DNA of 64,000 bases, taken from positions 68,352-132,351 of the forward strand of contig JBAZWW010000003.1 of assembly GCA_041660165.1 (NCBI GenBank), given 5' to 3'. The notes under the pieces were generated by a model that was given only the letters and a program-made list of their open reading frames with translations, did no database searches and was not told where the DNA came from. Positions 3,161 to 36,822 of this stretch are shown here, one piece after another. This DNA is from Patescibacteria group bacterium. GTDB taxonomy: Bacteria > Patescibacteriota > Patescibacteriia > UBA9934. A program made the position numbers and the translations under genes. The first letter of the stretch is position 1. Every line of letters begins with the position of its first letter.

Positions 3161-3190
3161 CGAATCCCGATACGCGGATTCGTTTTTTTA
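3161..3190 (+). terminator. rho-independent terminator
   Basis: CGAATCC-cgatacg-CGGATTCG followed by TTTTTTT. Confidence 0.55.
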
Positions 3191-3242: not shown

Positions 3243-6200
3243 ATGCACAAATTTTACGGCAGTTTCACACAGCCTCTTTTCGCTAAACTTATCATAGTAT
3301 TTTTCTTTTTCGTATTTTCATTTTCTTCAATAGGTATTGCCCAGGCAACGGTTTATTTGCCGGGCGAAACGCTTGCTCCGGATTGTGCGCCGGGTGCTTC
3401 AAGTTGCGGTGTACTTCCTATCGGCGACGCGCATACGGGTTCCGGTGCACCTTCGCTTGTAAGCCCGAATACCGGCGCGCTCTACTTTGATACAGCGGGC
3501 GGTATTTTGTATTCGTACAACGGTACTTCATGGGTGAGCGTGGGAAGTGGAACGACAATAACCAGCTTGAATGGTCAGACGGGTGCCTCACAAACATTTG
3601 CAACGGGTACGTCAGGAGCTGACGTAAACTTCGTTTCTGCCGGAGATATCCACACGCTGAATATTCCAAGTGCCTCCGTGTTGAACCGCGGGCTTGTCAC
3701 TATTGGCGCGCAAACATTTGGCGGGGTGAAGACCTTTGCAGACGGACTCGTAATGAACGGAAACGTTGTTGCTCCAAGCGGAACAAACTACACAACAACC
3801 GGCACGCAAAATGACGTGGATCTTGGTACGGGCTCATTCTTCCGTTATACGGGCGCAGGAGTTGCGACCTTTACGGGTTTTGCGGGAGGAGCTGATGGTC
3901 GAATGGTCCGTGTCACAAACGCATCTTCATCAAATCTCACCATTCAGCATCAAAATACGGGATCTGTAGCTGCGAACAGAATTATCATCGAAACTGGGCT
4001 GGACGCGATCATCACGCCAAACTCTACGTTTGACATGCAGTATGACGCGAGTACTGCCCGTTGGCGTATTGCGGTGTTGCCAACCACCTCATCTCAAAGT
4101 TTTGCACAGGGCGGTAACGCTTTTGGTGGAGTAGCCACTATTGGAACCACGGATGCTAACGCTCTCAACATCATCAGCGGTGGGACAACACGTTTTACAC
4201 TTGCTGCCGGTGCCTCAACGCTCACGGGGTCTGGTTCCACATCACTCATTTCCACCGGCGCGCTCGCTCTTTCGTCGGGGACGGCCTCGACCATTGGCAT
4301 CACCACTGGCACAACGGGAGTGTTGACACTCGACTCCGGCACAACGGGTGCGGTAAACCTTGGGAACGGATCAAACTCGAAAATTATCACTATTGGCAAC
4401 ACTACCGGTACGACGGCCTTAAACTTGAACAGCGGTTCCGGAGGCATTTCGCTAGTCGGAAACACAACCGTTACGGGAAGTCATACGTTTGCGACGGGTA
4501 CGGGATTGACCACCATCAATTCAACCCAAATGACACTTGCCGGGAATGGGATGGTGATAGATATGACCGGCACAGGGACGCTTGGCCTCAACACTACAAC
4601 GGATAGACCAATCACAACGGGTACGGGACTGACCACTTTGTCCGGTGATACGGACGTGGGCGGTCACATGATTGTGGCGGGGAACTTTGCCACAACCAGG
4701 GGCGCAGATTATTCAACAACCGGTGTCCAGAATAACGTTAATCTTGGCGCGGGATCATTTATCCGTTTTACTGCCGCAGGGGACGCAACATTCACAGGTA
4801 TCCTTCCAGGAGTTGATGGTCAAGATCTCACGCTCATGAACGTGGCAGGAGCGGGTACACTGACGTTGGCAAATAACAGCTCATCATCAGTTGTGGCGAA
4901 TAGGATTATTACCGGTACCGGTGGAGATCTCAGCATTGCTCCGGATACAGCCGTGCTTCTTCAATATGAGCTAACCCCTTTAGGCGAATCCGAGTGGCAT
5001 GTTATTTCTCCGCCTTCAAGCGTGGCCGCTATCGCAACTGCCGCTTTTCTTCAAAATGGAAATTCTTTTGCGGGAACGGCAACTTTAGGAACGAATGACT
5101 TCTTTGGCTTAAATTTTGAAACGAATAACGTGACAGCATTGGCGCTTGATACTTCCGGGAACGGTACGCTGACGGGTGATCTGACGGTGACGGGCGGAGA
5201 CATTTCTACTCCGGCGGCAACAGCTTTGAACGTGAAGACCGGGACAACTGGTGCCCTGACGCTTGATTCGGGAACAACGGGTGCTATTAACATAGGCACT
5301 GGTGCCAATGAGAAAGTAATCACCATCGGGAACACAACCGGGGCTTCAGCCATTCATCTGGATGCTGGAACCGGCGGGCTTCATATCAATGCAAATACGA
5401 CATTCACAGATGGTAATGCCTTTAGTTCCGGCTCAGGGGTATTTTCTATCTTGGGTAACTTTGTCACCCCGAAGGGGACAGACTATGCTTTAACTGGTAC
5501 CCAGAATAACGTCGCTCTCGGTACGGGGATGTTGTTCCGTTTCACCGGAGTTGCCCCGGCGACTATTACTGGTATTGCCAATGGTGCGGACGGCAGGCAA
5601 ATCAGGATAACGAACGCCTCATCCTCAAATATATCCATCACCAATGAGGATTCCGGATCGTTAGTGGCGAATAGAGTCCTCACCGCGAATGGAACAACCG
5701 CTACGTTAAAACCGAACGGCTCTGTTGGTTTGTTGTATGACTCAGGATCACTACGCTGGCGCGTATTTAGCCTCCCCGTTGAGGATGTTGCCGTGGTGGC
5801 AGGCGGGAATACTTTGGGCGCGGTGTTGAACATAGGTACAGTGGACTCTTATGCGCTCAATCTTAAGACAAATAACGTTACTGCTTTAGCAATTGATACT
5901 TCAAGTAATGCAAACTTTACGGGAGATATCACGGTGACGGGAGGTGATATTGCTACACCAGCTACATCGGCATTAAATATTACGACTGGTACCACAGGCA
6001 TTCTCACTCTGGACTCTGGCAGTACCGGGGCCGTGAATCTTGGTACTGGGGCGAGTGCAAAAACAGTGACAGTTGGCAACACCACAACCACATCGACGTT
6101 GAACCTCCAGTCGGGAACCGGAAATATTAACTTACAAGTTGCGGGTACAAGCGCAATTGGCAACGTACAAATTGGCGCGGGCACGGGATCTGCCACGCCG

Positions 6201-9200
6201 GATCTTTTGGTGCTCGACATAAAAAATAATGATGGAACAGATCCTGCTGGCGGAATAAACGGTGCAAGCTACTACAATACAACGAGTAACAAGTTTCGTT
6301 GTTATGAAGGCGGGGGATGGAAGGATTGTGACACCACCGGCGGGACGACTACGTTGCAGTCCGCATATAACTCCGGCCAAACGATCACGACATCATCCGC
6401 GCATGACCTTGCGCTTACGCTCACGAGCGGAAATTTCACCGCGTCCGGTGCCGGTGCAGTCACATTAACGCCAACAGGTGCGTCAAGCTTTACGTCCGGT
6501 GGTGCGCTGACTTTGACTGGTGGTGCCGCCTCAACATGGGGAACTACAACCGGCAACCTTAACGTGCAGGTTGCGGGCACGGGGACAACGGGGAACGTAC
6601 AAATCGGCGCAGGCGGGGCGGGATCGGCCACGCCCGACTTCTTTGTTGTTGACACAAAGTCTGCGGTAAGCGGTTCGGGAGATCCGTTAGGCGGGACACC
6701 GGGCGCGAGTTATTACAATATTGCCAGCGATAAGTTCCGTTGTTATGAAGGTGCCGGGTGGAAAGATTGTGACACGGGTGGCGGAGTTGGCGCGCAAACG
6801 TTGAACGGCCAGGGCGGAGCATCACAAACGCTTGTTGTGGGCACAACCGGTACAGATTTCAACATTGTTTCTGCTCTCGATGTTCATACGTTCAATTTGC
6901 CTGACGCCTCTACCACCGCTCGCGGTCTGCTGACCACGGGCGTCCAAACGCTTGGCGGGGCAAAGACTTTCAATGACGATCTGTTGGTGAACGGCTTGAC
7001 CACCCTTGGCAATGCTACCGGTGACACCGTGACGGTAAATGGCTCAACCTTCACTTTTGCTGGCAATAGCACTGTTCTAGACATGACGGGAACCGGCGTG
7101 CTGAGTTTGAACACAGTGACAAATCGGCCAATTACCACCGGTACCGGACTCTTTACGGCAAGCGGCGCGGCAACAGTTGCGGGTACATTTTCTAACTCCG
7201 GAAATTACGTAACACCTAAGGGCACGGATTACACCACCACGGGATCACAAAACAATGTCAATCTCGGAACCGGCTCATTGATCCGCTATACCGGTATTTC
7301 CCAAGCAACATTTACCGGCTTGGCCGGTGGTACTGATGGTCGATTTATCCGTATTATTAATGCTTCATCGTCAGACCTCATCTTTACGAATCAGGACATT
7401 TCTTCGACAGACACAAATCGCATCATTACCACTACGGGTGGTGCTCTGACGATTGGTTCAGACGTTTCTATCAGTATGCAGTACGACTCCGGTGTTAGTC
7501 GTTGGCGAGTAATCATTCTACCGGTTACATCTGGTACTCTAGCTGACATCGCATTCATTCAGAATGGTAACGCCTTCGGTTCTGCGGCAAATCTTGGCAC
7601 TACAGATGCTTTTGCGCTCAATCTGAAGACAAACGGGGCGAATGCCTTAGTTCTTGATACCTCCGGCAATGGAGATCTGACCGGCGACTTTACCGTGACT
7701 GGTGGCGATGTCGTCACTCCGTCCGGTACGTCGCTTAACGTAACCGCTGGCACTACCGGCGTCTTGACGCTTGACTCCGGTTCTACGGGAGCAATCAATC
7801 TCGGTACCGGGGCAAATGCCAAAACAATCACGATCGGTAATACATCCGGTGCAACGGAGGTACATGTACTTTCCGGCTCGGGTAACTTTGATCTGACCGC
7901 GCCCAGTGCAACGTTCAAAACCGCCACAACCACAGACGACAAACTTGCGCTCGTTCCTCATACCGGCGCAGCTTCCTCTTTCACGGGATCAATTACTTCC
8001 GCAGATTTGACGGTGAGTGGAAAGACGTGGACTTTCCCAAACCTGACAGGCAACGTTCTGCTTGATACTTCAACTTGTCTTTCAACGGGCTCGATAACGT
8101 GTAATGCGGGAAACAATACCGGAGCAGCACTTTCGATTGGTACTTTAGACGCGAATGCGTTGGATCTTATGACTGGTGGCACTACCCGTTTCGCTGTTGC
8201 CGCTGCTTCTTCCACGCTCACCGGTACAGGTTCGACAACGCTTGCTTCCACCGGCGCGCTCGCTCTGTCATCTGCTGCGGCCTCGACCATAGGTATCACC
8301 ACAGGCACAACGGGTATCCTTACGCTTGATTCCGGAACAACGGGCGCAGTAAACCTTGGTACGGGTGCAAGTTCGAAAACAATCACCATTGGCAACACAA
8401 CAGGTACGACTACGCTGAATCTGAACAGCGGGTCAGGCGGGGTTGTGATGGGTGGCAACGCTTCAGTTTCTGGCACTAATACTTTTACAACCGGTACCGG
8501 CACAACCACCATCAATTCAACCGCCATCACGCTTGCCGGCGCAAGTGCGGTTATTGATTTGTCGAGTGGAACTCTTGGGATCAATACCGCAACAAATCAG
8601 GCGGTCACCTTTGGTTCCGGGTTGGTTACTATGAATGGAGGCCTTACGGTTACGGGAGCAATTTCCGCTTCTGACGGTTTTTCTACGCCAAAGGGTACGG
8701 ACTACTCCACTACAGGCATTACCAATGACGTTAATTTTGGAAATGGTTCACTATTCCGTTATACCGGAGTGGGTTCGGCAACAATCACCGGTTTTGCCGG
8801 TGGTTCTGATGGCAAATACGTCCGCTTCATGAATGCTTCCACATTCGGCCTCACTATTGATAATGAGTCTGTCAGTTCCATTGCGGCCAATAGAGTCATT
8901 ACCGGAACGGGTAGCGCTCTTACTATTCCGGCGGATGGAACTTTTTGTGCGCAATACGACATCACCGCTACACGGTGGCGTTTAGGATGTACCCCAGCGA
9001 ACGCGAGTACAATTAGTTCTTTTGGATTCATTCAGGGAGGAAATGCTTTTGCCGCCACCGCTACTCTTGGTACAACGGATGCGAACGCTTTGAACCTTCT
9101 GACGGGTGGTGCAACAAGGTTTGCGGTTGCTGCTGGCACACCTACGCTCACGGGTACAGGCTCGACCATTCATACGTCAACAGGGACAATGACACTTTCC

Positions 9201-11333
9201 TCTGCGGCCGGTTCAAATCTGACCGTTGATTCCGGAACAACAGGATCGGTTTTCCTGGGAACAGGCATAGCAGCAAAGACGATTACTATCGGAAATGGAG
9301 CGGATGACACGTTCTCGCTTAACTCCTCGGCTCTTGTTGTCTCAACGGCTGGAGCATTGACGGGTGTGGCTTCGCTTGACACCGTCGCAACATCAGCAAC
9401 CGCCTTTACCTTCGCCGGTGCCGGAGCTATTTCTTCAACAACATCATCTGCCATGACGATCGATTCCGGTTCAACGGGTGACGTGAACCTTGGTACTGGC
9501 GGTACGGCAAAAACGGTGAATGTAGGTAACGTAACGGGAGGTACGACATTGAACTTGAAATCAGGGACAGGCGGTATTTTGATGACGGTTGACAGCACTG
9601 CGTCAAGCGGCCAGGTACGTATTGGCAACAGCGCAACCGCCACGCCGGATTTATTAGTACTCGATAACGGAACGGCAGACCCAACCGGAGTGAATGGTGG
9701 GATGTATTACTCGACGGCCACAAACAAGTTCCGTTGTTATGAAAATGGCGCGTGGGCAAATTGCATAGGCGGTGGAACGAGCTCGACATCAAAATTCGTT
9801 GTGAAGGGTGCAGATGAAAATGTTCCAACAGGGAACACGCTCCAAACTGATGATGCACTGACGTTTGCGGTGGGAGCAAGCGAAACATGGGTGTTCCAAT
9901 TCAATCTCATGGTTGATAACTTGAGTAGCACGGCACCTGATTGGCAAGCAGCAATTTTGGGCGCATCGGGTTGGACCTGTAACTTCATCATGCACGGCGA
10001 GGAACCAGGCAGCTCTGCCTTCCCACAGTCAGCGGGAACCGATTGTGACAACGTGCCTACCGCGGTAGCAGACGGCACAATTGCTTCCAACGGTGGAATT
10101 CCATTTGAGGTAGTGTTGCAGGGAAGTATTACAACAACGAGCAGTGGATCAGTTACGCTGGAATGGGCTCCAAACACCAGCGGAAGCCTAACGGTGAAAG
10201 CGGGAAGCTTTGTTATCGCGCAGAAAGTTGGCGGTGCTGACTTGGCTGAAGTGTATTACACGAGGGATTCTGGAATGAGACCCGGAGATGTGGTGAGCAT
10301 TGATGGATCTATAGCGTCAGGGGTTAAGAAATCAACCGTTGCGCGTGATCCTAAGGTGATTGGCATTATTTCAACAAAACCGGGGTTGATCCTTGGCGAC
10401 GCAGAAGTGAACACGGAAGATTTCCCGGTTTTTGTAGCCCTGTCCGGAAGAGTGCCGGTGAGGGTAGTTACAGAAAATGGTTCGATTGGAGTTGGCGATT
10501 ACCTCACACCCGCTTCAGAACCGGGCACGGCCATGAAATCCGATGGGACAGGCCCTGTTATTGGACAGGCCATGTCTGCGTATGACGGCGAGGGGATTGG
10601 CACGGTTCTTGCCTTCGTTAAGAGTTTTGACTTGGGAGATGAGAGGCTGGTGCTTCTAGGAGACATCTCGCCAAAGCCGAAGGCCGACGGATCAGACAAT
10701 GGTCTTTCCACGTTCGTTGCCATGCTTCAGGCTGAGACGGCGCATGACCCTGTGATAATCATTGGCGAGAAGATTGCAGGCGGAAAGGACTTCCTTACAG
10801 ACTTTGTCTCCGCTCGCGTTACAGCAATCCGCGGATACTTTGATGAAGTGTTCGCAAAGAAAGTGCACACGGAACAGCTTTGTGTGAAGAAGGCGGATGG
10901 TACGGAGGCGTGTTTTGACGGAGACCAATTGCAACAGGCAATCAATGGGGAAGGGCCTCTAGCGAATTTCTCGGCGCCATCGAATAGCCCGGCACCTGCT
11001 CCGGCACCGGAGACCTTGACGTCGATGACCGATGTGATTGCGCCGACAGAAACAGCAACGCCGGAAATCATAGCCCTTCCTGCTGACGTGTCTTCTGACA
11101 CGGTACCAAATGAAGCAACGACAGATACTTCGGCTCCTGTAGTGGAGACGGTTCCAATTGTGGACGCCCCGGTTTCCGCCGAGGAACCGGTGAGCGAGCC
11201 TGTTGTCATTGAAGCGCCTGCGGGTGTTCCTGACATTGTGCCAGCGCCCTTGGACGTAGCCCCTGTGAGTGAGCCGGCACCAGCGCCAGAATCTGCACCA
11301 GAATCGGCTCCTGCTCCTGACCCAGCTCCTTAA
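3243..11333 (+). CDS. giant (2696 aa) secreted Thr/Gly-rich repetitive cell-surface protein
   Basis: N-terminal signal/TM; five copies of a module [21 protein letters not shown]...TITG.A.GADGR..R..NASSS...ANRIITGTG; three copies of a YYN...[15 protein letters not shown] module; a near-identical roughly 330-bp internal duplication (about 4200-4450 and 8210-8460); a globular C-terminal domain; an APAPAP Pro-rich tail. Confidence 0.8.
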
Positions 11334-11347
11334 ATCTAATTATTTCT

Positions 11348-12064
11348 ATGAACATCTCAAGAAGCCCTCTTCGCGTGATCCCCGCTATCGTCTCAAAAAT
11401 CTTTCACGCCCTGAGTATTGAGCGCGCATTGCTCGGTCTGCTCATTGTCATGGCTGTTGCCGGCACGGGGAGTTCTGTTTATTTCTATAAGCGCTACACC
11501 GCGCTCAAGGCAAACCCGAATGCAGAGGCGCAGAAAGAAAGCGCGGCTTTGCTTGAGGCGCTTGGCAAGCATATTGAGTTGCCAAAAGATGAGACGCCTT
11601 CGGTTGTGACTATTGTTGATAAAACAAAACTGGCTGATCAAGCATTTTTCAAAAATGCGGAGAATGGAGATGTGTTATTTGCCTACGTGACAACTAAAGA
11701 AGCTATTCTCTATCGGCCATCCACGAACAAAATCATCCAAGTGGCCTCTATTAACGTGAGCGCTGATGCGGCCACGCAGACCGCGCCTGCCGAGTTGTCG
11801 GTGGCCTATTACAACGGAACAACAACGGCTGGGCTTACGACCGCCACTGAAAAACTCGTTAAGGACGCCTTCAGTTCATACAAAACAGCGTCAGTCACAG
11901 TGGCAGCAAAAACAAATTACACACAAACCATTGTGGTAGATGTTTCAGGCAAACACGCTGAAGAAGCCGCGAAGGTCGCGGAAGTTGTCCATGGCATCGT
12001 TGCCGGATTGCCTGATGGGGAGGCCGTGCCAAACGCGGATTTGCTGATTATTTCAGGTAAGTAA
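11348..12064 (+). CDS. membrane-anchored LytR_C-like (LytR/CpsA/Psr C-terminal) domain protein
   Basis: N-terminal TM; C-terminus LSVAYYNGTTTAGLTTATEKL...TIVVDVSG...DLLIISGK matches the LytR_C pattern. Confidence 0.5.
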   Translation: MNISRSPLRVIPAIVSKIFHALSIERALLGLLIVMAVAGTGSSVYFYKRYTALKANPNAEAQKESAALLEALGKHIELPKDETPSVVTIVDKTKLADQAFFKNAENGDVLFAYVTTKEAILYRPSTNKIIQVASINVSADAATQTAPAELSVAYYNGTTTAGLTTATEKLVKDAFSSYKTASVTVAAKTNYTQTIVVDVSGKHAEEAAKVAEVVHGIVAGLPDGEAVPNADLLIISGK

Positions 12065-12069
12065 ATTGT

Positions 12070-13302
12070 ATGCGGAAGAGACTCGCCATACTTTTCTTGC
12101 TTGGCGTGTGTTTTCCGTTTCAGGCCCTTGCTTTCACCGGAAGCGTTTTGGCAGATCACGAATACGCTTGGAGCAATAATGTTGGCTACATCAGTTTCCG
12201 CAACGTGGTTATTACGGACAGCTCACTAAGCGGGTATGCCTGGTCCGCGAATAAGGGTTTTATTACGTTCAATCCCGCAAGGGGCGGGGTTCATAATGAC
12301 GGTAAGGGCAACTTATCCGGTTCAGCCTGGGGCGAGCAATTGGGTTGGATTGATTTTAGCGGGGTGGCGATAGATACATTCGGGCAATGGTCAGGGACAG
12401 CCACGGGGGATTTGGTAGGCACAATCACTTTTGATTGTCCGCAGTATTGCGATGTAAATACTGACTGGCGCGAAACAAAAGAGCCAACGTCTAGCAGAGC
12501 GTCCGTTCTCCCCTCGCAAGGGACGCCTACTCGTCTTGATGTAGTGGATCAACCGCTCATCACCGTTCCCGGCGAGTCCGGAAGTTTGACATTCAATACC
12601 CCGGTTGGGCCCGTTATTTTGGACGTCCCGACAAACACCTCATCAGGGCCAATCACGTTTATCATTACGCCCGTGCCATTAACTGCAGACAATAGGTATC
12701 TGGTGATTGGGAACACCGTGCTTGTGAACGGAGAGTTTTATGACCTTACCGCTTCGGATCCCAACGGTAGTCCCGTAGAATCTTTTTTTCCTCCGCTCGC
12801 TATCACGCTCCCGATAGACAGGAAGCTTTTGTCCGTGAATAATTTAGGACTGTATTTTTTTGACGAGTCTAATCAAGAATGGGCGCTTATCCCCGATGCA
12901 ATTTTTGAACCAAATAGCGTTACGGTTCAAATGGATCATTTAGCCCGGCTGGCGATCTTTGGCGGATTGGCTGAGGTGCCAAAACCGCCGGAGTTGCCGT
13001 TGCCAACGGTCATCACGCCGATCGTTCCCGTTACTCCGCCGGCTCCCATCCCAACTGTCCCCTCAAAGCCCGTCCCCACTGCACCGGGCGCAAAACCCAT
13101 TCCAGGAGGGCCATCGGCACCAGCTGGGGGAGTTGTGTCTCCGCCAAGCAGAGGCGAGATTGCGAACATCCCTTCGGTGCTAGCGAACGTCATTCCCGTG
13201 CTCCGGAGAAGCGTGCCTGTAGATATTATTATTGGTCTTGGTCTGAGTTCGCTCGCGCTTCTTTTATTGCTTCCTCGACTATTCAAACTGCTTAGGAAAT
13301 AG
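12070..13302 (+). CDS. secreted repeat protein with a Pro-rich linker and C-terminal membrane anchor
   Basis: Signal peptide; repeated G(Y/S)AWS..KGFI(T/D)F motifs; PxxP-rich region; C-terminal hydrophobic helix plus KLLRK. Confidence 0.5.
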   Translation: MRKRLAILFLLGVCFPFQALAFTGSVLADHEYAWSNNVGYISFRNVVITDSSLSGYAWSANKGFITFNPARGGVHNDGKGNLSGSAWGEQLGWIDFSGVAIDTFGQWSGTATGDLVGTITFDCPQYCDVNTDWRETKEPTSSRASVLPSQGTPTRLDVVDQPLITVPGESGSLTFNTPVGPVILDVPTNTSSGPITFIITPVPLTADNRYLVIGNTVLVNGEFYDLTASDPNGSPVESFFPPLAITLPIDRKLLSVNNLGLYFFDESNQEWALIPDAIFEPNSVTVQMDHLARLAIFGGLAEVPKPPELPLPTVITPIVPVTPPAPIPTVPSKPVPTAPGAKPIPGGPSAPAGGVVSPPSRGEIANIPSVLANVIPVLRRSVPVDIIIGLGLSSLALLLLLPRLFKLLRK

Positions 13303-28425: not shown

Positions 28426-28551
28426 CAAGCTCCCACCCCGACGTGAGGAGGGGTAGCGAGGAGGCAACCAATTCTACCCCTCGTCTCCTCGGGGTGGGAT
28501 GTTCAGGGTTGAACGATGGGTAGAAATGAACCGTGTTACAATACGTATGCT

Positions 28552-29094
28552 ATGCATCTAGCTCGTTCAGTTTTTGTTTCACTTTTCCTTGTCCTAGCCG
28601 GTGCCTGTTTTTTTTCGTCCGCCAAACCTGCCCAGGCCCAAACGGTAAGCGAGGGTTATACGCAGATCATGTCTCAGGGTTTGGTTTTTGGAAACATTTG
28701 TCCGGCTGATAAGACCGTGGCTTGTCCATGTAGAGACGATGGCACGTGCCAGCTTTCAGACATGCTCCAGATTTTTGTAAACTTGTCGATTGGCATTCTG
28801 GCGATTTCAGGCTCCGTTGCCCTTCTCATGTTTTTCTACGGTGGTTTCACCTGGGTGACAAGCATGGGAAATGCCAAGAATGTGGAAAAGGGTAAGGAGA
28901 TCATTACCCGCGCGGTCATTGGCCTGGCTATCATCTTTGGGGCGTACGCCTTTGTGAACTTTCTCATCTTTGCTATCTCGGATACAAAAACCCGCGGTGA
29001 TCTTCCCGGTGCTACCATTGAACAAACCATTGATAAATCCGTCACCGGCCAGGAAGGGGGAGCGCCGGCAGGAAACATTCTGAACACCCAATAA
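28552..29094 (+). CDS. TrbC/VirB2-like pilin-family protein (paralog 1)
   Basis: Signal peptide; Cys-rich N-terminal region; conserved C-terminus LLMFFYGGFTWVTSMGNAKNVEKGKEIITRAVIGLAIIFGAYAF. Confidence 0.65.
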   Translation: MHLARSVFVSLFLVLAGACFFSSAKPAQAQTVSEGYTQIMSQGLVFGNICPADKTVACPCRDDGTCQLSDMLQIFVNLSIGILAISGSVALLMFFYGGFTWVTSMGNAKNVEKGKEIITRAVIGLAIIFGAYAFVNFLIFAISDTKTRGDLPGATIEQTIDKSVTGQEGGAPAGNILNTQ

Positions 29095-29095
29095 T

Positions 29096-29713
29096 ATGAA
29101 GAAGCTATTATTTTTTCTCGTCTTCGGAGCACCCTTTCTTTTCCCCCTCTCGGCTTTAGCGAATTGTCGTTCTGTACTTGATTCATGCGTTGCCGCGTGT
29201 GGCTCAGATGGTCTCTGTAGTCTGGCCTGTAATGAGGCGTATTTAGGATCTGTTGCTACATATGCGCCGGATCCTGTGCCAAGCGGTCACAATGTTCAGG
29301 CCTGTGTTGACCCCGCTCCGCCCTCAACTCCTCCGCCTTCAAACGCATCTGCAAATCTGCCCTCAACTAATGGCACAACAACCTTGTCAGACGCAAACAA
29401 GCCAGTCACGCTCATCAATCCATTGGGCACCACGGATCCCCGGGAGATTATTGGAAACCTAATTAAGGCGGTCATCTCCATCATTGGTTCTATCACGCTT
29501 CTCATGTTTGTTTATGGGGGCGTGTTATGGATTACGTCCATGGGTGATGATAAGAAGGTGATGAAGGGCAAACAGATCCTGGTGTGGTGCGTGGCCGGGC
29601 TGGCCATCATTGCCGGCGCCTATGCGCTCACTAACGCGGTGATTAGCGGGCTGACCACGGGGAGCGTTATCCCCACCACTGCCACGGGAGGATCAACCAC
29701 ACCACAGCAATAA
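29096..29713 (+). CDS. TrbC/VirB2-like pilin-family protein (paralog 2)
   Basis: Signal peptide; Cys-rich N-terminus; IGNLIKAVISIIGSITLLMFVYGGVLWITSMGDDKKVMKGKQIL...AGAYALTNAV. Confidence 0.7.
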   Translation: MKKLLFFLVFGAPFLFPLSALANCRSVLDSCVAACGSDGLCSLACNEAYLGSVATYAPDPVPSGHNVQACVDPAPPSTPPPSNASANLPSTNGTTTLSDANKPVTLINPLGTTDPREIIGNLIKAVISIIGSITLLMFVYGGVLWITSMGDDKKVMKGKQILVWCVAGLAIIAGAYALTNAVISGLTTGSVIPTTATGGSTTPQQ

Positions 29714-29760
29714 TCCTGTGCTATACTTCTTTTAAGAAATTCACTATTTCTATTATTACT

Positions 29761-30171
29761 ATGGTGAAAGCAATCGTGCGGTTCGGGATGAGCGTTGCCT
29801 TGGGTCTGGCCATGTCACTCCCGTTTGTCCGCTTGGTTCCGTCTCTCATGCCGGTAGCCCACGCTCAACCGCTGGCTGCAGAAGACATTATCAATCCGCA
29901 GTTTGGCGACGCTACGGGTCTTGGCCAGGGAGATCTGAAACAGACCATTGGCAATTTGATCCGCGTGGCTCTTGGATTCCTGGGCGTGGTAGCAGTGGTC
30001 ATTGTTCTCTACGGTGGTTTCAAGTGGATGGTGGCCGGCGGTAATGATGAGAAGGTGGGCGAGGCTAAGAAGCTCATCATCTCCGGCATTATTGGTCTGG
30101 CTATCATTCTCTCAGCTTACGCCATCACCACGTTTGTCATCTCAAGCTTCATGACCGCCACCACAGCGTAG
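29761..30171 (+). CDS. TrbC/VirB2-like pilin-family protein (paralog 3)
   Basis: IGNLIRVALGFLGVVAVVIVLYGGFKWMVAGGNDEKVGEAKKLI...SAYAITTFV. Confidence 0.7.
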   Translation: MVKAIVRFGMSVALGLAMSLPFVRLVPSLMPVAHAQPLAAEDIINPQFGDATGLGQGDLKQTIGNLIRVALGFLGVVAVVIVLYGGFKWMVAGGNDEKVGEAKKLIISGIIGLAIILSAYAITTFVISSFMTATTA

Positions 30172-30225
30172 TTGTCTCCTATCGAACTCCGCATCTTTCT
30201 TCTGGAAAGGTGCGGAGACGATATG

Positions 30226-30639
30226 CGAAAACTGGCAGCCGCCGCCTTCCTGACCATGGCTTTTTTTGCACCGCTTCGTCAGTGCTTGGCCTTTAGCGTG
30301 AATGACACTGGTCTGGAAACAACGGCTTTTGCCGCTAAGTACAGTACAGGTGACAACGTAAAAAACATCGGTACATTCATTGGCTTTTATATTATTCAGC
30401 CGGTGCTAGGTATCTTGGGTCTCCTTTTCTTGGTTCTCATGATTTACGCCGGTGTTCTCTGGATGACCGCTTCCGGCAATGAAAAGCGTGTACAGAAAGC
30501 AAAAGACATTTTGATCGCTGCCGTTATTGGCGCCACCATTATTGTGGGTGCATACGCAATCACAAATGCCCTCTTTAGTGCACTTTCTTCGGGATCTATT
30601 ACCGGTGCGCCCGCCACTACCTCCACTCCAACGCCTTAA
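30226..30639 (+). CDS. TrbC/VirB2-like pilin-family protein (paralog 4; ORF opens at 30172)
   Basis: LMIYAGVLWMTASGNEKRVQKAKDILIAAVIGATIIVGAYAITNAL. Confidence 0.65.
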   Translation, partial: RKLAAAAFLTMAFFAPLRQCLAFSVNDTGLETTAFAAKYSTGDNVKNIGTFIGFYIIQPVLGILGLLFLVLMIYAGVLWMTASGNEKRVQKAKDILIAAVIGATIIVGAYAITNALFSALSSGSITGAPATTSTPTP

Positions 30640-30644
30640 ACTCT

Positions 30645-30986
30645 ATGCCTTTTACTACCGGGCTTTCTGACGCAGCTACGGGTAATTATTCCACCACGCA
30701 AACGCTTGGCCAGCTGATTGGCATGCTGATTAGCGCCGTGCTTGGCATCCTTGGTGTAATTTTGCTGGTTCTTGTGGTCTATGCCGGATTTCTTTGGATG
30801 ACCGCAGCCGGTGATGACAAGAAAATTAAGAAGGCTAAAGATATTCTTGCATCCGCGGTTGTGGGTATGATTATTGTGGTGGCCTCTTACTCTATTTCTA
30901 CGTTTGTTATTGGTGCTTTGCAGGGGACAACAAACGGAGCGAACAATACTTCTAATCAGAATATGGTGAATCAACAGCAACCGTAG
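30645..30986 (+). CDS. TrbC/VirB2-like pilin-family protein (paralog 5)
   Basis: LGQLIGMLISAVLGILGVILLVLVVYAGFLWMTAAGDDKKIKKAKDIL. Confidence 0.7.
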   Translation: MPFTTGLSDAATGNYSTTQTLGQLIGMLISAVLGILGVILLVLVVYAGFLWMTAAGDDKKIKKAKDILASAVVGMIIVVASYSISTFVIGALQGTTNGANNTSNQNMVNQQQP

Positions 30987-31036
30987 GCAGTTAGGTTTTT
31001 AATGGTGTATACTCTCAGTAAGAATTAATTATAACT

Positions 31037-31411
31037 ATGAACAAGCTCAAGCAATTGGTTATCGGTACCGCAATCGCTGTTATGCCTTTCAGCGCCGTGG
31101 CCCTTACGGTGCACGCCGCGGATCTCACTTCACAGTTGAGCGACGTAAACCAGACTGCAGGGTTTGGAACAAAGACCCCGCAGGAAACCATTGGTCAGCT
31201 TATCAGCGTATTCCTGGGCGTGCTTGGTATCGTCTTCTTGCTTCTCACTATTTACGCCGGTTTCCTCTGGATGACGGCGGCTGGTGATGACAAGAAAGTT
31301 GCTTCCGCCAAGAACATCCTTATCTCAGCGGTAGTTGGACTGGTGGTTATTCTCTCTGCTTACGCTATCAGCAGTTTCGTGATCCAACAGCTTCAGACAG
31401 CAACAACGTAA
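31037..31411 (+). CDS. TrbC/VirB2-like pilin-family protein (paralog 6)
   Basis: IGQLISVFLGVLGIVFLLLTIYAGFLWMTAAGDDKKVASAKNIL. Confidence 0.7.
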   Translation: MNKLKQLVIGTAIAVMPFSAVALTVHAADLTSQLSDVNQTAGFGTKTPQETIGQLISVFLGVLGIVFLLLTIYAGFLWMTAAGDDKKVASAKNILISAVVGLVVILSAYAISSFVIQQLQTATT

Positions 31412-31474: not shown

Positions 31475-31538
31475 TAACGAAAACTGACCCCCGCGTTAGC
31501 GTTGGGGGCCAGTATATTTGCGCTCAGTCGGCGCACGC

Positions 31539-32177
31539 TTAGAGGCAGGATTGCCCGAGAGTAATCCAGAAGTGGTTGCCCGGGGCCTTGGGCTCGTAGT
31601 GGAGGTCCATTGTGCCCGTCATGGGCTGGGGCCGGCACTGGCGTCCCTGCAGGAGGTCGAACACGAAGTTCGTGTCCGCATTGAGCGCCTTCATGGGCAT
31701 CTTGGTGCCCTCCACCCACAAGGCGTCCACGTTCCACGTGGCGGAGGTCTCATAGACCGTGCCCTTCACCACAACCCGTCCATCGGTGACGCCGAGTTTG
31801 ACCCAGGCGTCCCCGAAGGGGAGGCAGGGAGCAGGCTCGCCGTCCGCGTTGATCACGGTGACGGAGGCGTATACGCCGCTGCGCGGATCGAGCCCGATGA
31901 CCACCGGCAGTGCTCCGCCCGTGATGTCCGGGGTGGTGCACGTACCGCGGTTGGGGTTCGTCACCTTGATGAGGCTGGTCAGCTTGTCACAGCCGTCCGG
32001 CCAATCAAGGAGGTAGACGCCCTCTTCGATGTTGTTGTGACCGCCTTCGCACTGCGGTTTCTTGAACCGCAGGTCCGTGTGCAGGTCGCTTGACCCGCGG
32101 TAGACGGCCACTTCCTTCGCGATGGCGGACGTGGTGACGGCCAGAACGGCGGCGACGATTCCAATGTAGCGGAACAT
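31539..32177 (-). CDS. secreted Cys-containing hypothetical protein (within the GC-rich island)
   Basis: Signal peptide MFRYIGIVAAVLAVTTSAIA; high GC3; antisense ORFs judged spurious. Confidence 0.5.
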   Translation of the reverse strand: MFRYIGIVAAVLAVTTSAIAKEVAVYRGSSDLHTDLRFKKPQCEGGHNNIEEGVYLLDWPDGCDKLTSLIKVTNPNRGTCTTPDITGGALPVVIGLDPRSGVYASVTVINADGEPAPCLPFGDAWVKLGVTDGRVVVKGTVYETSATWNVDALWVEGTKMPMKALNADTNFVFDLLQGRQCRPQPMTGTMDLHYEPKAPGNHFWITLGQSCL

Positions 32178-32350
32178 GATGCCTCCAAGGGGTGCGGATT
32201 TCAGCGAGACATGACGGAGAGCTTATGGGCCTTCCGTCCTGTCTGCAGTAGATCCGGCCTCCCCTCAATGAAGAAGGGAGACACGGGAGCCTCGCGTGTG
32301 GGCTCATCGATGACGTACCGTAGGGACGAGGCTCGGCCTCGTCCTTGTCG

Positions 32351-33109
32351 TTACGGTTTTTCGGCCGGTGTGGGCGTGGCCAGGGTGGCCCCGATCTTGG
32401 CGGCGGCCGTCTGCACGTCCGCCACTGAGGACCCGAGGTCGGCCTGACCGAGCGCCTCTGCGTCGATCTTGGCCTGTTCCTCGGGCGTCACGGGTACGCC
32501 GTCGGGCTTGTCCGCTAGCGTGCCGGTGTCTGGGATGGTGCCGGTCTTGGGCGTACGGCCGTAGAGGTCTCCGCGGAAGTCTGCGATGACCCCGCTTCCG
32601 CCGTACCTGTAACCACCGGCGCCGAAGCTGGAACCACGGCCGTTGCTCGTGACCGCCGTCGCCAGCGCCACGTCCGTACCAACGGCGAACGTGTCGCCGC
32701 TGATGAACACGGGCCGGCCGGACGAGATCGCGCTCGTCACCGCCGAACTGCGCGTCTGCGCGTCCGTGAACGCGGGCAGGATCTGCACGCTGGCGATCGT
32801 GACGTTCGCGCTGGTCCGCGCGAGCTCCACGCGCTCGTCGCTCTGGATGCGGGCGAGGGCGATGGTCCGATCGGCGCACTGCGTGGCGAACTTGGTGCCG
32901 GCACGCGTGGTCGTGTGAGACGGCTCCAGCGTGACGCCGGCGCAGTCGCCGTAGAACGTCGCCCGGCCCACGTTCGGCCCGTTTTGCGGGTCGGCCGTGG
33001 TGGCGGTGCTGACCGGGCCCCAGTTCGGTGCCGGGGTGGCCGTGGCGTCCTGGGCCATGGCGGACCCGGAAGCCAGAGTGAAAAGAATCGAAACCAGATA
33101 CTTGCGCAT
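32351..33109 (-). CDS. secreted hypothetical protein (within the GC-rich island)
   Basis: Signal peptide MRKYLVSILFTLASGSAMA; Thr/Ala-rich; high GC3. Confidence 0.5.
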   Translation of the reverse strand: MRKYLVSILFTLASGSAMAQDATATPAPNWGPVSTATTADPQNGPNVGRATFYGDCAGVTLEPSHTTTRAGTKFATQCADRTIALARIQSDERVELARTSANVTIASVQILPAFTDAQTRSSAVTSAISSGRPVFISGDTFAVGTDVALATAVTSNGRGSSFGAGGYRYGGSGVIADFRGDLYGRTPKTGTIPDTGTLADKPDGVPVTPEEQAKIDAEALGQADLGSSVADVQTAAAKIGATLATPTPAEKP

Positions 33110-33243
33110 GTTTACCTCGCGCTTGGGTGGTCGGTCCTAGGCTCAGCAATCGGACAGTCCGACGGCTTTGCCCAGACCCTTTAGAATAGCAAAAAAATGG
33201 GTTTTTGTCAATGTTTCAAAGAGGGTGTTTCTTGGCTAATCTA

Positions 33244-33272
33244 TTGACATTTTTGAAAATTTGGGGTATTCT
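33244..33272 (+). promoter_or_regulatory. sigma70-like promoter (TTGACA-17-TATTCT) in the AT-rich divergent region
   Basis: TTGACA at 33244-33249 and TATTCT at 33267-33272; the only AT-rich stretch in the island. Confidence 0.45.
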
Positions 33273-33338
33273 CTTTTGTCTTCCTCCCCGTGCTTGCACA
33301 AGGAGGAATGACCGTCTTGGTTAGGAATACCGTTCAAC

Positions 33339-35129
33339 ATGGGGCAACGGCAAAGCCGATCCCCGGAGGAAATGATCATGCGTCGTACCCGAAATGCCGG
33401 TACCCCGGCTCTCACTCCCGGTCAGGAGCGTGCTTCTGACCTGTGGGATCGAATCGTTGATCTGCGGTTCCTCCCGGGCCGTACGATCCGCGGTCGCGCG
33501 CCGGTTCGCGGTCCGGAGATCGTGGATCGCCCGACAGAGATCCAGGTGCTCAACTGGATCATGCTCAACTGGCTCCCTGGCAATCAGGGGGTCTTGAGCC
33601 TGCTCCCGGACATGACGGTGCCGGATGCGGGAGTGGGGAATTTCGACGTGGATACTCTGTTCCGCGTGCGCGACCCTGATCCCGTTCCACCCGCCGTGGA
33701 CACTCGGCCCACCCCCGCAGAGCGCGAAGCCGCCACCCAGGCGATTTACGCACTGCTGGACGGTCCGTTTGCCCCGTTCGAGCAGGCACTCCGCGCAGGC
33801 GGAACCCCGGCCATCCCGTGGTGGCTTCGGCCCTGGTTCGAAGGTCTGGACTTCGTGGATGACCACCTGACTGTGGCCAGCCAGGCGTTCTTGCCCCAAT
33901 GGAGGCTGGTTCTCGGGGCTCTTCGCGGAGTGGGCGGATTCGCGGGCATGTTCACGCTCGGGTTCGTTGGAGCCACGCTGGCCGTTCTCTGTGCGGGGAT
34001 GCCGTTCGTGGCCTTCATCTTGTTCCTGGGCGTGCTCTTCCTCGGTCGGCGCGCTCTCGGCCGGATCTGGGGATGGATCACGGGCGCTGCGGATTGGATC
34101 GTGGAACAGCCGGCGCGTATCTGGAACGCCATGTTCCCCGCGCTCGTGACGTCCCTGACACCGCCTCCCAGGCCTCCGACCGACCCCAACTTCGTGGAGG
34201 GCGTGTCGGATCTGTCGCCCATCGAGCGTCGTGTCATCGGGCGTCGGAACGCATGGGGTGTGGTGGCTGCCGTTATCTTCGGCGGTATCCCGTTCGCCTA
34301 CGGCATCATCATGTCCACGATCGGCCTGTACCACATCTACGAGCCGATCGCGGCTGGTGCCGTGAACCCTGTGTTTGAAGGCCTTGGCAACGGGGCATTC
34401 AACCCGGCATCGTTCAACCTGAACTACTATATGTTCATGGTTGAAATCTCCCGGTACATCCTGATGATTACGGAAGTCATTACGATGAGTGCCTGGGGGG
34501 TTCCGCGTATCCGTGAGTTCGACAACAACCTCGCTGACGGCACCGTGGTGGCTCATCCGACGGATTTCCGTCGCTTGATCGAGCGGTTTGGTCTTCTCAT
34601 GGTGTGGTTCCGCCTGGGTGCGTCCGGTCGATTCCGTCCGCACTTCATCACGATCTGCATCATCGTCGACTCCATCGCTGTTCTGCTGAATGGGTACGTA
34701 TACCCTATTCATCACACGGCTCAGGGGTGGGCCTGGTCCTCGACGTTGTTGACTTGGTGGTTGATCCTCATCATTAACGTGGGCATTCGCTTCGGCGGGT
34801 GGTTCAACTTCAATGATCGGGAGAAGCTCGTCAAGTCGCTTACGGGGTACCTGTTCACTGGCCTGGGTGCTCCGCTCGCCGTCATGCTGGTCATGGGGTT
34901 CCTTCCCCCCCGGCACGGTGATGACGTGATGACGCTGGCGCAGACGGCCGGTGGCAACGCGATGGTTGCCGCTAGCAACTACGTGGGCCCGGCAAAGCTC
35001 GATCGCCCGCCCGTCCTTCCGCGCCCCGAGTGCGCGAATGCGAAGGCCAAGGTGGCCGTGCTCGAAGCCAAGATCCCTGGCATCTGCCTGCGGAACCCCG
35101 GAAAGGTTCCCTGTAGCTGCCCGAAGTAG
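33339..35129 (+). CDS. large polytopic membrane protein (at least 8 TM) of unknown function, high GC
   Basis: Multiple hydrophobic helices (e.g. FAGMFTLGFVGATLAVLCAGMPFVAFILFLGVLFLG, WAWSSTLLTWWLILIINVGI); the antisense 614-aa ORF is R/H/D-rich junk. Confidence 0.55.
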   Translation: MGQRQSRSPEEMIMRRTRNAGTPALTPGQERASDLWDRIVDLRFLPGRTIRGRAPVRGPEIVDRPTEIQVLNWIMLNWLPGNQGVLSLLPDMTVPDAGVGNFDVDTLFRVRDPDPVPPAVDTRPTPAEREAATQAIYALLDGPFAPFEQALRAGGTPAIPWWLRPWFEGLDFVDDHLTVASQAFLPQWRLVLGALRGVGGFAGMFTLGFVGATLAVLCAGMPFVAFILFLGVLFLGRRALGRIWGWITGAADWIVEQPARIWNAMFPALVTSLTPPPRPPTDPNFVEGVSDLSPIERRVIGRRNAWGVVAAVIFGGIPFAYGIIMSTIGLYHIYEPIAAGAVNPVFEGLGNGAFNPASFNLNYYMFMVEISRYILMITEVITMSAWGVPRIREFDNNLADGTVVAHPTDFRRLIERFGLLMVWFRLGASGRFRPHFITICIIVDSIAVLLNGYVYPIHHTAQGWAWSSTLLTWWLILIINVGIRFGGWFNFNDREKLVKSLTGYLFTGLGAPLAVMLVMGFLPPRHGDDVMTLAQTAGGNAMVAASNYVGPAKLDRPPVLPRPECANAKAKVAVLEAKIPGICLRNPGKVPCSCPK

Positions 35130-35226
35130 GTCCTGCCCGTAGGGGAAACGGGAAGGGCCTCGCAACGGCCGGATGACATGAGCAGAAATGCTTATGACAA
35201 CCGGTCGTTTTCTAATTTAGAGAGAG

Positions 35227-36675: not shown

Positions 36676-36822
36676 GTGTCCGGTCCTACTCCGACGACAG
36701 GAGGAGTAGCCTTGGATGCCATTGGATAAGGATTCTGACAAATTACAGTAAGCCAATTCTATCCCTCGCTTTGCTCGGGATGGGATCCATCGGCTCGGGG
36801 TGGGAAGTTAGAAATACACGCT

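Follow-up and report, generated by a model that had tools for sequence, protein, structure and literature searches.

Organization of the fibre locus

The window analyzed here, a stretch of 64,000 nucleotides (nt) of contig JBAZWW010000003.1 from a metagenome-assembled genome (MAG) of a Patescibacteria group bacterium, contains a giant gene for a predicted surface fibre, which is the subject of this study. An earlier note on the same DNA had described a Thr/Gly-rich open reading frame (ORF) of 2696 amino acids (aa) with a signal peptide, and such a product is indeed encoded (Thr 16.1%, Gly 14.3%, Ala 10.9% and Ser 9.4%). Our analysis shows that the chain is a mosaic pieced together from kinds of domain known elsewhere from phage tail fibres and tailspikes. 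Behind a signal peptide and a short Cys box comes a stalk of ~2100 aa, built from five copies of module A, seven of module B and three of module C, and then a C-terminal region made up of the units CT1, CT2, CT3 and a tail. The features of the fibre gene are as follows.

3243..11333, + strand: giant fibre gene, a single ATG-initiated ORF of 2696 codons (2696 aa)
3243..3347, + strand: signal peptide, aa 1-35, a 35-letter pattern followed by TV, read from the translation
3348..3428, + strand: N-terminal Cys box (22 letters), aa 36-62, motif P.C.PG...C
3429..3761, + strand: N-proximal domain, aa 63-173, a degenerate C-type motif (15 letters) plus a 'SLNGQTGA...RGL...QTFGGVKTF' segment
3759..4091, + strand: module A copy 1, aa 173-283, predicted Phage_depo_C-like beta-sandwich
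4098..4472, + strand: module B copy 1, aa 286-410, from self-comparison and motif counts
4683..5021, + strand: module A copy 2, aa 481-593, from repeat alignment
5040-5402, 5790-6152, 7551-7901, 8109-8462, 9027-9332 and 9333-9602, + strand: module B copies 2-7, from self-comparison
5457..5780, + strand: module A copy 3, aa 739-846, from repeat alignment
6240..6332, + strand: module C copy 1, aa 1000-1030, Cys hairpin
6663-6995, + strand: second copy of the N-proximal domain, aa 1141-1251, from self-comparison
6681-6773 and 9675-9767, + strand: module C copies 2 and 3, copy 3 immediately before the tip
7203..7532, + strand: module A copy 4, aa 1321-1430, the copy used for the structure model
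8679..9002, + strand: module A copy 5, aa 1813-1920, from repeat alignment
9780..10238, + strand: CT1 tip, aa 2180-2332, TNF/C1q-like jelly-roll, predicted distal receptor-binding domain
10239..10637, + strand: CT2, aa 2333-2465, putative phi29 gp12-type (Peptidase_G2-like) C-terminal auto-chaperone domain
10239..10250, + strand: D2333-L-A-E2336, predicted autocleavage motif, scissile bond between A2332 and D2333
10641..10952, + strand: CT3, aa 2467-2570, predicted three helices and a Cys hairpin (C2547, C2557)
10953..11330, + strand: acidic Pro/Ala/Val/Glu-rich tail, aa 2571-2696, from the translation, with no membrane anchor

Taken as a whole, the 2696-aa protein found no match in Pfam and only two weak ones in PHROGs; the PDB sequence search with the 2175-aa stalk returned nothing, and NCBIfam gave nothing useful for the C-terminal region, the N-terminus or the neighbouring genes. 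In particular, no S-layer or autotransporter family (SLH, beta-barrel translocator or YadA anchor) was matched by Pfam, on the whole protein and its pieces, or by the PDB sequence search of the stalk, and the fibre has no C-terminal hydrophobic or barrel region. The protein was found identical in the Logan assembly of SRR18595301, and its aa 1-481 recur without change in an NCBI entry from a 'Patescibacteria group bacterium', where the annotation gives a partial protein of 481 aa. To survey relatives, the CT2 alignment was scanned against one genome per GTDB species, yielding at least 534 confirmed relatives; locus-level counts given here and below rest on the best 80 of these.

The N-terminus reads in the translated sequence as a Sec signal peptide—a basic n-region of 15 residues, a hydrophobic core of 17 residues and AQA before TV—and homologues share this layout, with a conserved box immediately after the AxA site. 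All 16 cysteines of the chain fall into eight close pairs with a spacing of 7-22 residues, an arrangement that none of 200,000 random placements reproduced and that fits local disulfides of an exported protein. The Cys box motif P.C.PG...C stands directly after the signal peptide in seven related loci and in P0002, P0050 and P0053, fibres with an S74-type chaperone included, and is a candidate cell-proximal attachment module. The N-proximal domain that follows is 49% identical to its second copy in self-comparison. Within it, aa 64-100 match phrog_20787 ('virion structural protein', E 3.4e-4) in PHROGs, and the module-C-type motif at aa 65-105 is repeated in many proteins, up to 18 times in one chain, and its relatives match DUF2793.

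A gp12-like domain with a predicted self-cleavage site

A search with aa 2176-2570 returned 80 proteins, nearly all of them unnamed and from Patescibacteria MAGs. Mapping the match extents over these proteins split the C-terminal 520 residues into four independently occurring units—CT1, CT2, CT3 and the tail. What the earlier note had taken for a non-repetitive C-terminal domain of ~300 aa is thus a region of ~390 aa with three separable domains, and the Pro-rich acidic tail it had described was located at aa 2571-2696. An AlphaFold2 (AF2) monomer model of aa 2176-2570, built on a 54-sequence alignment, reached a mean predicted local distance difference test score (pLDDT) of 85, with CT1 and CT2 mostly above 90 and CT3 at 54-86. 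The first PDB phmmer matches of the C-terminal region, to a CFA/I fimbrial subunit and a MurNAc/GlcNAc kinase, were short, found no support in profile or fold, and were discarded as chance.

The C-terminal domain of phi29 gp12 is an intramolecular chaperone that aids trimerization and is cleaved off once folding is complete (PMC3357383). A profile of the fibre family matches the gp12 chain 3gqh_A in the PDB ('Preneck appendage protein', 163 aa) at E 0.027, with DLAEVYY aligned to residues 1-7 of that chain (DFAEYFE), such that D2333 and E2336 correspond to chain residues 1 and 4. At the level of predicted structure, the top Foldseek match of the model in the PDB is 3suc, the premature form of phi29 gp12 (E 1.1e-4, probability 1.0). 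Moreover, BFVD, which holds predicted viral structures, gave 120 matches at E<=1e-3, tail fibre proteins among them, and its 'Preneck appendage protein' entries were recovered at E 3.5e-9, with a root-mean-square deviation of 2.0-2.3 Å over 133-138 columns. PF11962 (Peptidase_G2, IMC autoproteolytic cleavage domain) scored 13.9 bits on aa 2325-2480 (E 0.035, matched part aa 2333-2390), below its cut-off of 25. A homologue, P0061, named 'Peptidase autoproteolytic cleavage domain' at NCBI and 32% identical to aa 2331-2548, passes that cut-off (28.7 vs 25 bits) while the fibre itself does not, so the link to PF11962 is transitive only. By sequence, the closest phage relatives of CT2 are C-terminal domains of jumbo-phage virion proteins: the C-terminus of gp359 of phage PA5oct, whose gene adjoins that of a long tail fibre distal subunit, is 35% identical to CT2 and has a start of the same type, 'ADLAERYE'. 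Weak sequence matches, fold matches and a transitive homologue therefore converge, supporting the view of CT2 as a domain related to the phi29 gp12 auto-chaperone.

Residues D2333 and E2336 are invariant in the CT2 family alignment, and D-x-x-E occurs in 80 of 80 related loci; we take its D and E to be the catalytic residues of gp12. About 15 homologues (P0015, P0017-21, P0026-34 and P0047) terminate at '...AQKVGG[S/I]', aligned to aa 2331/2332. These proteins lack the chaperone and stop one residue before the D of 'GADLAE'. Since D-x-x-E is invariant and aligned to the start of the gp12 fragment, and since homologues stop one residue earlier, self-cleavage is predicted between A2332 and D2333.

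A TNF-like tip exchanged between orthologues

The Foldseek matches of CT1 include the PLTL TNF-like lectin (9ib9/9ib7), the N-terminal lectin of BC2L-C (2wq4), the C-terminal domain of Pgp3 from Chlamydia (4jdn) and 4-1BBL (6a3v). Against small single-domain targets, the probability was ~1.0 and the target-normalized template modeling score (TM) 0.41-0.52. A weaker match was obtained with the carbohydrate-binding domain (CBD) of the short tail fibre of cyanophage A-1(L) (8ke9; probability 0.96, TM 0.21), and phage proteins with collagen repeats also match the tip model among predicted viral structures. The modeled fold places CT1 among TNF/C1q-like, lectin-type jelly-rolls. Because many relatives end one residue before the D of the cleavage motif, the tip would be able to work as a terminal domain. 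Some of these tip-ended homologues are small (277-280 aa), with CT1 placed behind a signal peptide and a short stalk; P0047 has a collagen repeat and a module-C motif, followed by a CT1-type tip, in keeping with the collagen-bearing phage matches.

Comparison with the Uhrbacteria orthologue (L011/P0005) is instructive. Residues 1-2018 are kept at 71% identity, the module-C motif before the tip is nearly unchanged and the chaperone is ~60% identical, and an unrelated domain of ~135 aa replaces CT1. As judged from the aligned sequences, this is a clean tip replacement between orthologues. The L011 fibre gene itself is split into two overlapping ORFs, 3277-9453 (2059 aa) and 9326-10930 (535 aa), by a frameshift or an assembly error; giant fibre genes of the CT2 family are probably often fragmented in public MAGs.

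Repeat modules of the stalk

Repeats were defined by comparing 120-aa fragments against the whole protein. Module A ('TPKGTDY...ANRI...RWRV', ~110 aa) is present in five copies with 46-53% mutual identity. The five 'TPKGTDY' copies reported earlier correspond to these modules in number, but the exact motif appears only three times (aa 742, 1324 and 1815), the other two being degenerate (TTRGADY at 484 and PSGTNY near 178). When the five copies were turned into a profile, it retrieved 54 small stand-alone proteins of 100-208 aa in which the domain is C-terminal. The module A homologues P0098, P0100 and P0107 exceed the cut-off of Phage_depo_C (PF25692) at 32-36 bits vs 25, while module A of the fibre itself has no Pfam match and stays below the PF25692 threshold. 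One module A homologue also matches PHROG tail-fibre families, and P0100 sits in a phage-like contig beside a Phage_cement_2 protein.

An AF2 model of aa 1300-1445, spanning module A copy 4, had a mean pLDDT of 87.3. Its best fold match in the PDB is the tailspike depolymerase gp83 of the Acinetobacter phage Solidus (E 6e-4), and further Foldseek matches include a baseplate protein of Klebsiella phage KP1, the Pa223 capsid spike and TSP4 of CBA120. The fold also matches domains in 6o38 (CpaA) and in StcE (4dny), of which the CpaA domain has been described as glycan-binding-like (PMC10253068). According to the model, module A is a beta-sandwich of the phage tailspike/depolymerase type, probably related to Phage_depo_C, instead of the beta-helix that had been suggested.

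The stretches between these modules, previously regarded as G/T/S low-complexity sequence, resolve in self-comparison into about seven copies of module B, a Gly/Thr-rich repeat of 100-125 aa with 40-75% identity between copies; its consensus spans 31 letters, and a short form consists of 21 letters followed by '..K.ITIGN'. The claim of three Cys-pair modules was borne out: the module C hairpin, 'YY....KFRCYE.G.W..C' (given also as a 23-letter pattern), has an exact KFRCYE at aa 1017, 1164 and 2162, in addition to a degenerate copy without Cys at aa 75-100. The last copy of module C is kept in homologues that bear other tips. Identity between repeat copies is no higher than 71-75% at the DNA level, which marks the duplications as old; a recent expansion of the repeats, or phase variation, was ruled out on the same grounds.

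The post-chaperone module and tail

CT3 appears in the AF2 model as helices (model residues 313-366) followed by a hairpin (371-383), with pLDDT 54-86. The same module also occurs behind Peptidase_S74 (PF13884) in P0049-P0053, where it is followed by a Pro-rich tail. From its distribution among these proteins, CT3 thus seems to form a unit of its own that can be combined with chaperones of both types. In 38 of the 80 related loci the tail has at least 12% Pro and an acidic excess, and a C-terminal hydrophobic helix was observed in none of the 80. A sortase, LPXTG or C-terminal transmembrane anchor was considered and dismissed, being absent in the fibre and in the 80 relatives.

Distribution across the Candidate Phyla Radiation

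The 80 best loci come nearly all from the Candidate Phyla Radiation (CPR)—Microgenomates, Parcubacteria, Saccharibacteria, Uhrbacteria, Collierbacteria, Gracilibacteria and others—with two Bdellovibrio-like MAGs and some labelled Gammaproteobacteria or Pseudomonadales also represented. CT2-bearing stop-to-stop ORFs are at least 1500 aa long in 39 of 82 cases, and the longest has at least 3963 aa; many of these ORFs are cut by the 10-kb flank. Across the 80 loci, modules A, B and C, together with CT1 and CT3, are combined differently from locus to locus. Sequence comparison thus shows the CT2 fibre family to be widespread in CPR, with tips exchanged between orthologues.

The two contigs assigned to a Bdellovibrio sp. 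and a Pseudobdellovibrionaceae MAG (L049 and L062) have a gp12-like domain ~50% identical to the CPR type, and in L062 a gene 2 homologue (see below) lies 44 nt downstream of the fibre gene. These contigs either result from mis-binning or represent fibre cassettes shared by two groups that live on other bacteria.

Genes next to the fibre

Two genes for envelope-type proteins follow the fibre gene on the same strand.

11348..12064, + strand: gene 2, 238 aa, with an N-terminal transmembrane helix, a conserved extracytoplasmic domain of ~80 aa and a LytR_C-like end
12070..13302, + strand: gene 3, 410 aa, with a signal peptide, 'GYAWS.N.G[FW]I.F' repeats, a Pro-rich stretch, and a C-terminal transmembrane helix with a basic tail

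The earlier note had placed the fibre between a LytR_C protein and an anchored repeat protein. Both genes do adjoin it, but both are downstream, and the LytR_C match of gene 2 stays below the Pfam cut-off (18.2 vs 22.2 bits). Gene 2 starts 14 nt past the fibre stop codon. A homologue of it is found downstream and on the same strand in 49 of the 80 loci (e.g., L011, 10935-11630); in 35 of the 80 it begins less than 300 nt from the fibre stop, and the median gap is 50 nt. LytR_C was detected in 7 of 20 members of the gene 2 family, namely the longer ones (best E 6.6e-13). The conserved outer domain, 'LP.DE.PTVATV.D..KLKDQ.FF..AENGD.LLIY', has no Pfam, NCBIfam or PDB match. The gene 2 product may be a fibre anchor or assembly factor.

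Gene 3 starts 5 nt after gene 2. It has a homologue downstream of the fibre in 12 of the 80 loci, with 57% identity in the orthologous Uhrbacteria locus; its product has no match in Pfam, NCBIfam or PDB and no LPXTG. Upstream of the fibre gene, positions 3161-3182 form a terminator-like hairpin. Since no such hairpin was found on the + strand between the fibre gene, gene 2 and gene 3, the three probably form one operon.

No phage genes were present in the 20 flanking ORFs that were scanned, which extend ~3 kb upstream and ~17 kb downstream. The neighbours are cellular and include an endonuclease/phosphatase, an EamA transporter, a PAS/zinc-ribbon protein, AAA_14/DUF4143 and CYTH proteins. A prophage origin was accordingly rejected, all 20 scanned ORFs being cellular. 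Neither a paralogue nor another fibre gene was found in the 64-kb window.

Comparison with known systems

The mosaic adhesive trimer (MAT) fibres of Bdellovibrio are the closest described system. Their chains have a conserved N-terminal domain behind a signal peptide, form a trimeric stalk and use a self-cleaving S74-type chaperone (Caulton et al. 2024, PMC10769870), and their tips are swapped, some being TNF-like lectins that resemble BC2L-C of Burkholderia (2WQ4; PMC10769870). Both MATs and the CPR fibre are cell-encoded and tail-fibre-like, with a signal peptide, a conserved element after it and a long repetitive stalk. Their C-terminal tips, TNF-like ones included, are swapped between paralogues or orthologues, and a self-cleaving chaperone belongs to part of the MAT family and is predicted here. 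The bearer of MATs lives on other bacteria, as is assumed for the CPR source.

The two systems differ in several respects. The MAT chaperone is Peptidase_S74, with an SDxxxK motif, whereas the CPR fibre, which has no match to PF13884, carries a gp12/Peptidase_G2-like domain with D-x-x-E; some CPR relatives do carry S74. TNF-like tips belong to chaperone-less members among MATs, while the CPR fibre has a TNF-like tip and a chaperone in one chain. The conserved N-terminal domain of MATs is beta-rich and comprises ~130 aa, in contrast to the short Cys box found here. Additionally, the helical module, the acidic Pro-rich tail, the five internal sandwiches, the length of 2696 aa and the conserved downstream gene for a membrane protein are extras of the CPR fibre, and the MAT bearer is a Gram-negative predator whereas the CPR bacterium is monoderm-like. 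No MAT entries appeared among the PDB sequence matches of the stalk or the C-terminal region, on the assumption that solved MAT fragments are present in the PDB library.

In both phi29 gp12 (PF11962; 3gqh and 3suc) and the CPR fibre, a domain of ~130 aa with a similar predicted fold and D-x-x-E at its N-terminal edge follows the fibre or spike body. However, sequence similarity is marginal (E ~0.03), the CPR body is not an enzymatic beta-helix of the gp12 type, 231 residues follow the gp12-like domain, and the CPR fibre would, unlike phi29 gp12, fold outside the cytoplasm. PA5oct gp359 shares its 35% identity with CT2 across the whole domain, including 'ADLAE'; unlike the CPR fibre, it ends with this domain, has 478 aa and no signal peptide, and is a virion component. 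Phage_depo_C (PF25692) is single and C-terminal in phage and small stand-alone proteins, whereas the module A domain is internal and fivefold in the CPR fibre; they are linked by homologues that pass the Pfam cut-off and by a modeled fold that matches tailspike, capsid-spike and baseplate domains.

Interpretation and competing explanations

The explanation we favour, and consider fairly probable, is that the gene encodes a Sec-exported surface fibre of the phage-tail-fibre type, with a self-cleaving gp12-type chaperone and a tip that binds a host or partner cell. After export, the gp12-like domains of three chains would associate and fix the register, upon which the fibre would zip up from the C-terminus towards the N-terminus. 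The invariant D-x-x-E would then mark the point of self-cleavage, between A2332 and D2333, and the TNF-like domain would be left as the free distal tip. The N-terminal end would stay at the cell through the Cys box, an uncleaved signal anchor or the probably co-transcribed membrane protein encoded by gene 2. The tip, and possibly the five lateral beta-sandwiches too, could attach to glycans on the surface of the partner or host, with the fibre acting for an episymbiont much as a receptor-binding protein does for a phage. Three things suggest a role in adhesion or host recognition: folds that resemble lectins, tips that are swapped, and the Bdellovibrio MATs as a precedent. The earlier note's idea of a tail-fibre- or adhesin-like giant protein of CPR bacteria is in this respect supported, with homologues almost all from Patescibacteria MAGs. 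Of the folds it had put forward for checking, the intramolecular chaperone was recovered in the 3gqh_A profile match, 3suc and the BFVD entries, the tail-fibre fold in module A, and the lectin fold in CT1.

Several points weigh against this explanation. Direct comparison of CT2 with gp12 and PF11962 yields marginal matches (E ~0.03, under the Pfam cut-off); we infer cleavage, trimerization and the adhesive role alike, the beta-helical trimer proposed for the module B stalk is drawn purely from analogy, and an episymbiotic lifestyle of the source MAG is assumed. Release of the gp12 domain reportedly needs ATP, and ATP is absent outside the cell. The fibre carries no LPXTG, SLH or C-terminal transmembrane anchoring motif. 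Its N-terminus was matched in full length by only 3 of the 292 hits of an exhaustive search, most of which fall on an internal repeat motif, and a broadly conserved N-terminal anchor domain had to be rejected. Finally, CT2 is never C-terminal in CPR loci: 84-765 residues (median 318) always follow it, so a disposable chaperone fails to explain the downstream extension.

It is this extension that suggests a lasting C-terminal function and with it a gp12-like domain that is no protease but a retained trimerization or knob domain, as in the P22 tailspike; the mature end would then consist of CT2-CT3 and the tail, with the TNF-like domain in a sub-terminal position. The PF11962 and gp12 matches, lying under curated thresholds, are compatible with such a role, and auto-chaperone domains that stay in place are known (PMC3357383). 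We nonetheless regard a retained knob as unlikely, given that D-x-x-E is kept in all 80 loci and the phage homologue, in alignment with the N-terminus of the crystallized gp12 fragment, and that so many relatives stop exactly one residue before its D.

An enzymatic function must also be weighed. Phi29 gp12 breaks down teichoic acid, as phage depolymerases do capsules. By its kinship to gp12 and to Phage_depo_C-type domains, and with a module A fold that finds matching domains in the glycoproteases CpaA and StcE as well, the protein could be a secreted tailspike-like enzyme instead of an adhesin, its stalk or beta-sandwiches degrading wall polymers of the host. Yet no catalytic domain was found by Pfam, NCBIfam, PHROGs or PDB sequence search, the matched parts of depolymerases are non-catalytic C- or N-terminal beta-sandwiches, and the gp12 match falls in the chaperone domain, outside the enzymatic beta-helix, all of which renders this account improbable.

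A structural envelope protein of the S-layer or sheath type, with no part in host recognition, would likewise be large, Thr/Gly-rich, secreted and highly repetitive, and could be encoded beside cell-envelope-type genes as here. We hold it to be very improbable: Pfam revealed no SLH or other S-layer domain, the domains are of the fibre and tailspike type with a threefold chaperone, and tip swapping between orthologues is typical for receptor-binding proteins, not for lattice proteins. Although each recognizable domain has phage structural homologues, a tail fibre belonging to some phage-derived particle (prophage, tailocin or other) whose genes lie elsewhere is scarcely credible in view of the Sec signal peptide and eight disulfide-type Cys pairs, the lack of phage genes among the 20 scanned flanking ORFs and of a paralogue or second fibre gene in the window, and the conservation in cellular CPR genomes with a membrane-protein partner.

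A broader proposition can also be formulated, which we put forward tentatively and with more doubt than conviction. CPR bacteria as a group might use phage-derived, often giant fibres—with exchangeable tips, a gp12-type self-cleaving chaperone and a co-encoded membrane protein—as determinants of host recognition, such that the tip type would predict the host to which a given CPR lineage can attach, much as host range in phages is set by the receptor-binding protein. The cleaved chaperone, together with the helical module and tail, might persist as a removable cap.

Other features of the window

Elsewhere in the window, several observations deserve a brief account. A region of deviant composition extends over ~31500-35200, with a G+C content of 0.64 at 32-34 kb vs ~0.50 elsewhere; it may have been horizontally acquired. 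Its opposite strand bears long Arg-rich shadow ORFs, and it contains three genes:

31539-32177, - strand: gene for a 212-aa secreted protein
32351-33109, - strand: gene for a 252-aa secreted protein
33339-35129, + strand: gene for a 596-aa multi-pass membrane protein

An AT skew of -0.32 at 36000-38000 covers two genes for Leu/Phe-rich multi-pass membrane proteins (35227-36675 and 36823-38031, + strand) and probably reflects just codon composition. In addition, five small ORFs (124-205 aa) with signal-peptide-like N-termini lie at 28516-31411, downstream of a gene for a solute-binding protein.

Novelty and implications for CPR biology

The literature on CPR surfaces deals with type IV pili and unnamed 'adhesins' (PMC10633639, PMC11665869 and PMC12206443). 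No description of the CT2 fibre family was found in the literature searched, the coverage of which was incomplete, making a prior description possible; no paper on Peptidase_G2/PF11962 was found in the same literature. Cell-encoded, mosaic phage-like fibres with an intramolecular chaperone are already known. What appears to be new is the chaperone type, the architecture (tip, chaperone, CT3 and tail, with internal Phage_depo_C-like modules), the partner gene and the breadth across CPR.

How ultrasmall CPR bacteria find and hold their hosts is largely unexplained, and almost none of these organisms can be cultured. If the explanation favoured here is true, the cellular use of phage intramolecular chaperones would widen from the S74 type of Bdellovibrio MATs to the phi29 gp12 type, raising the mechanistic question of how a gp12-type chaperone works, and leaves, outside the cytoplasm. 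For hundreds of CPR species, the CT2 fibre family would then offer a tangible candidate determinant of host specificity, one that can be read from sequence. A catalogue of the tip types in MAGs could be compared with the hosts that occur alongside them, and recombinant tips could serve as host probes. The fibres of this family may thus be how CPR bacteria recognize the cells they live on.

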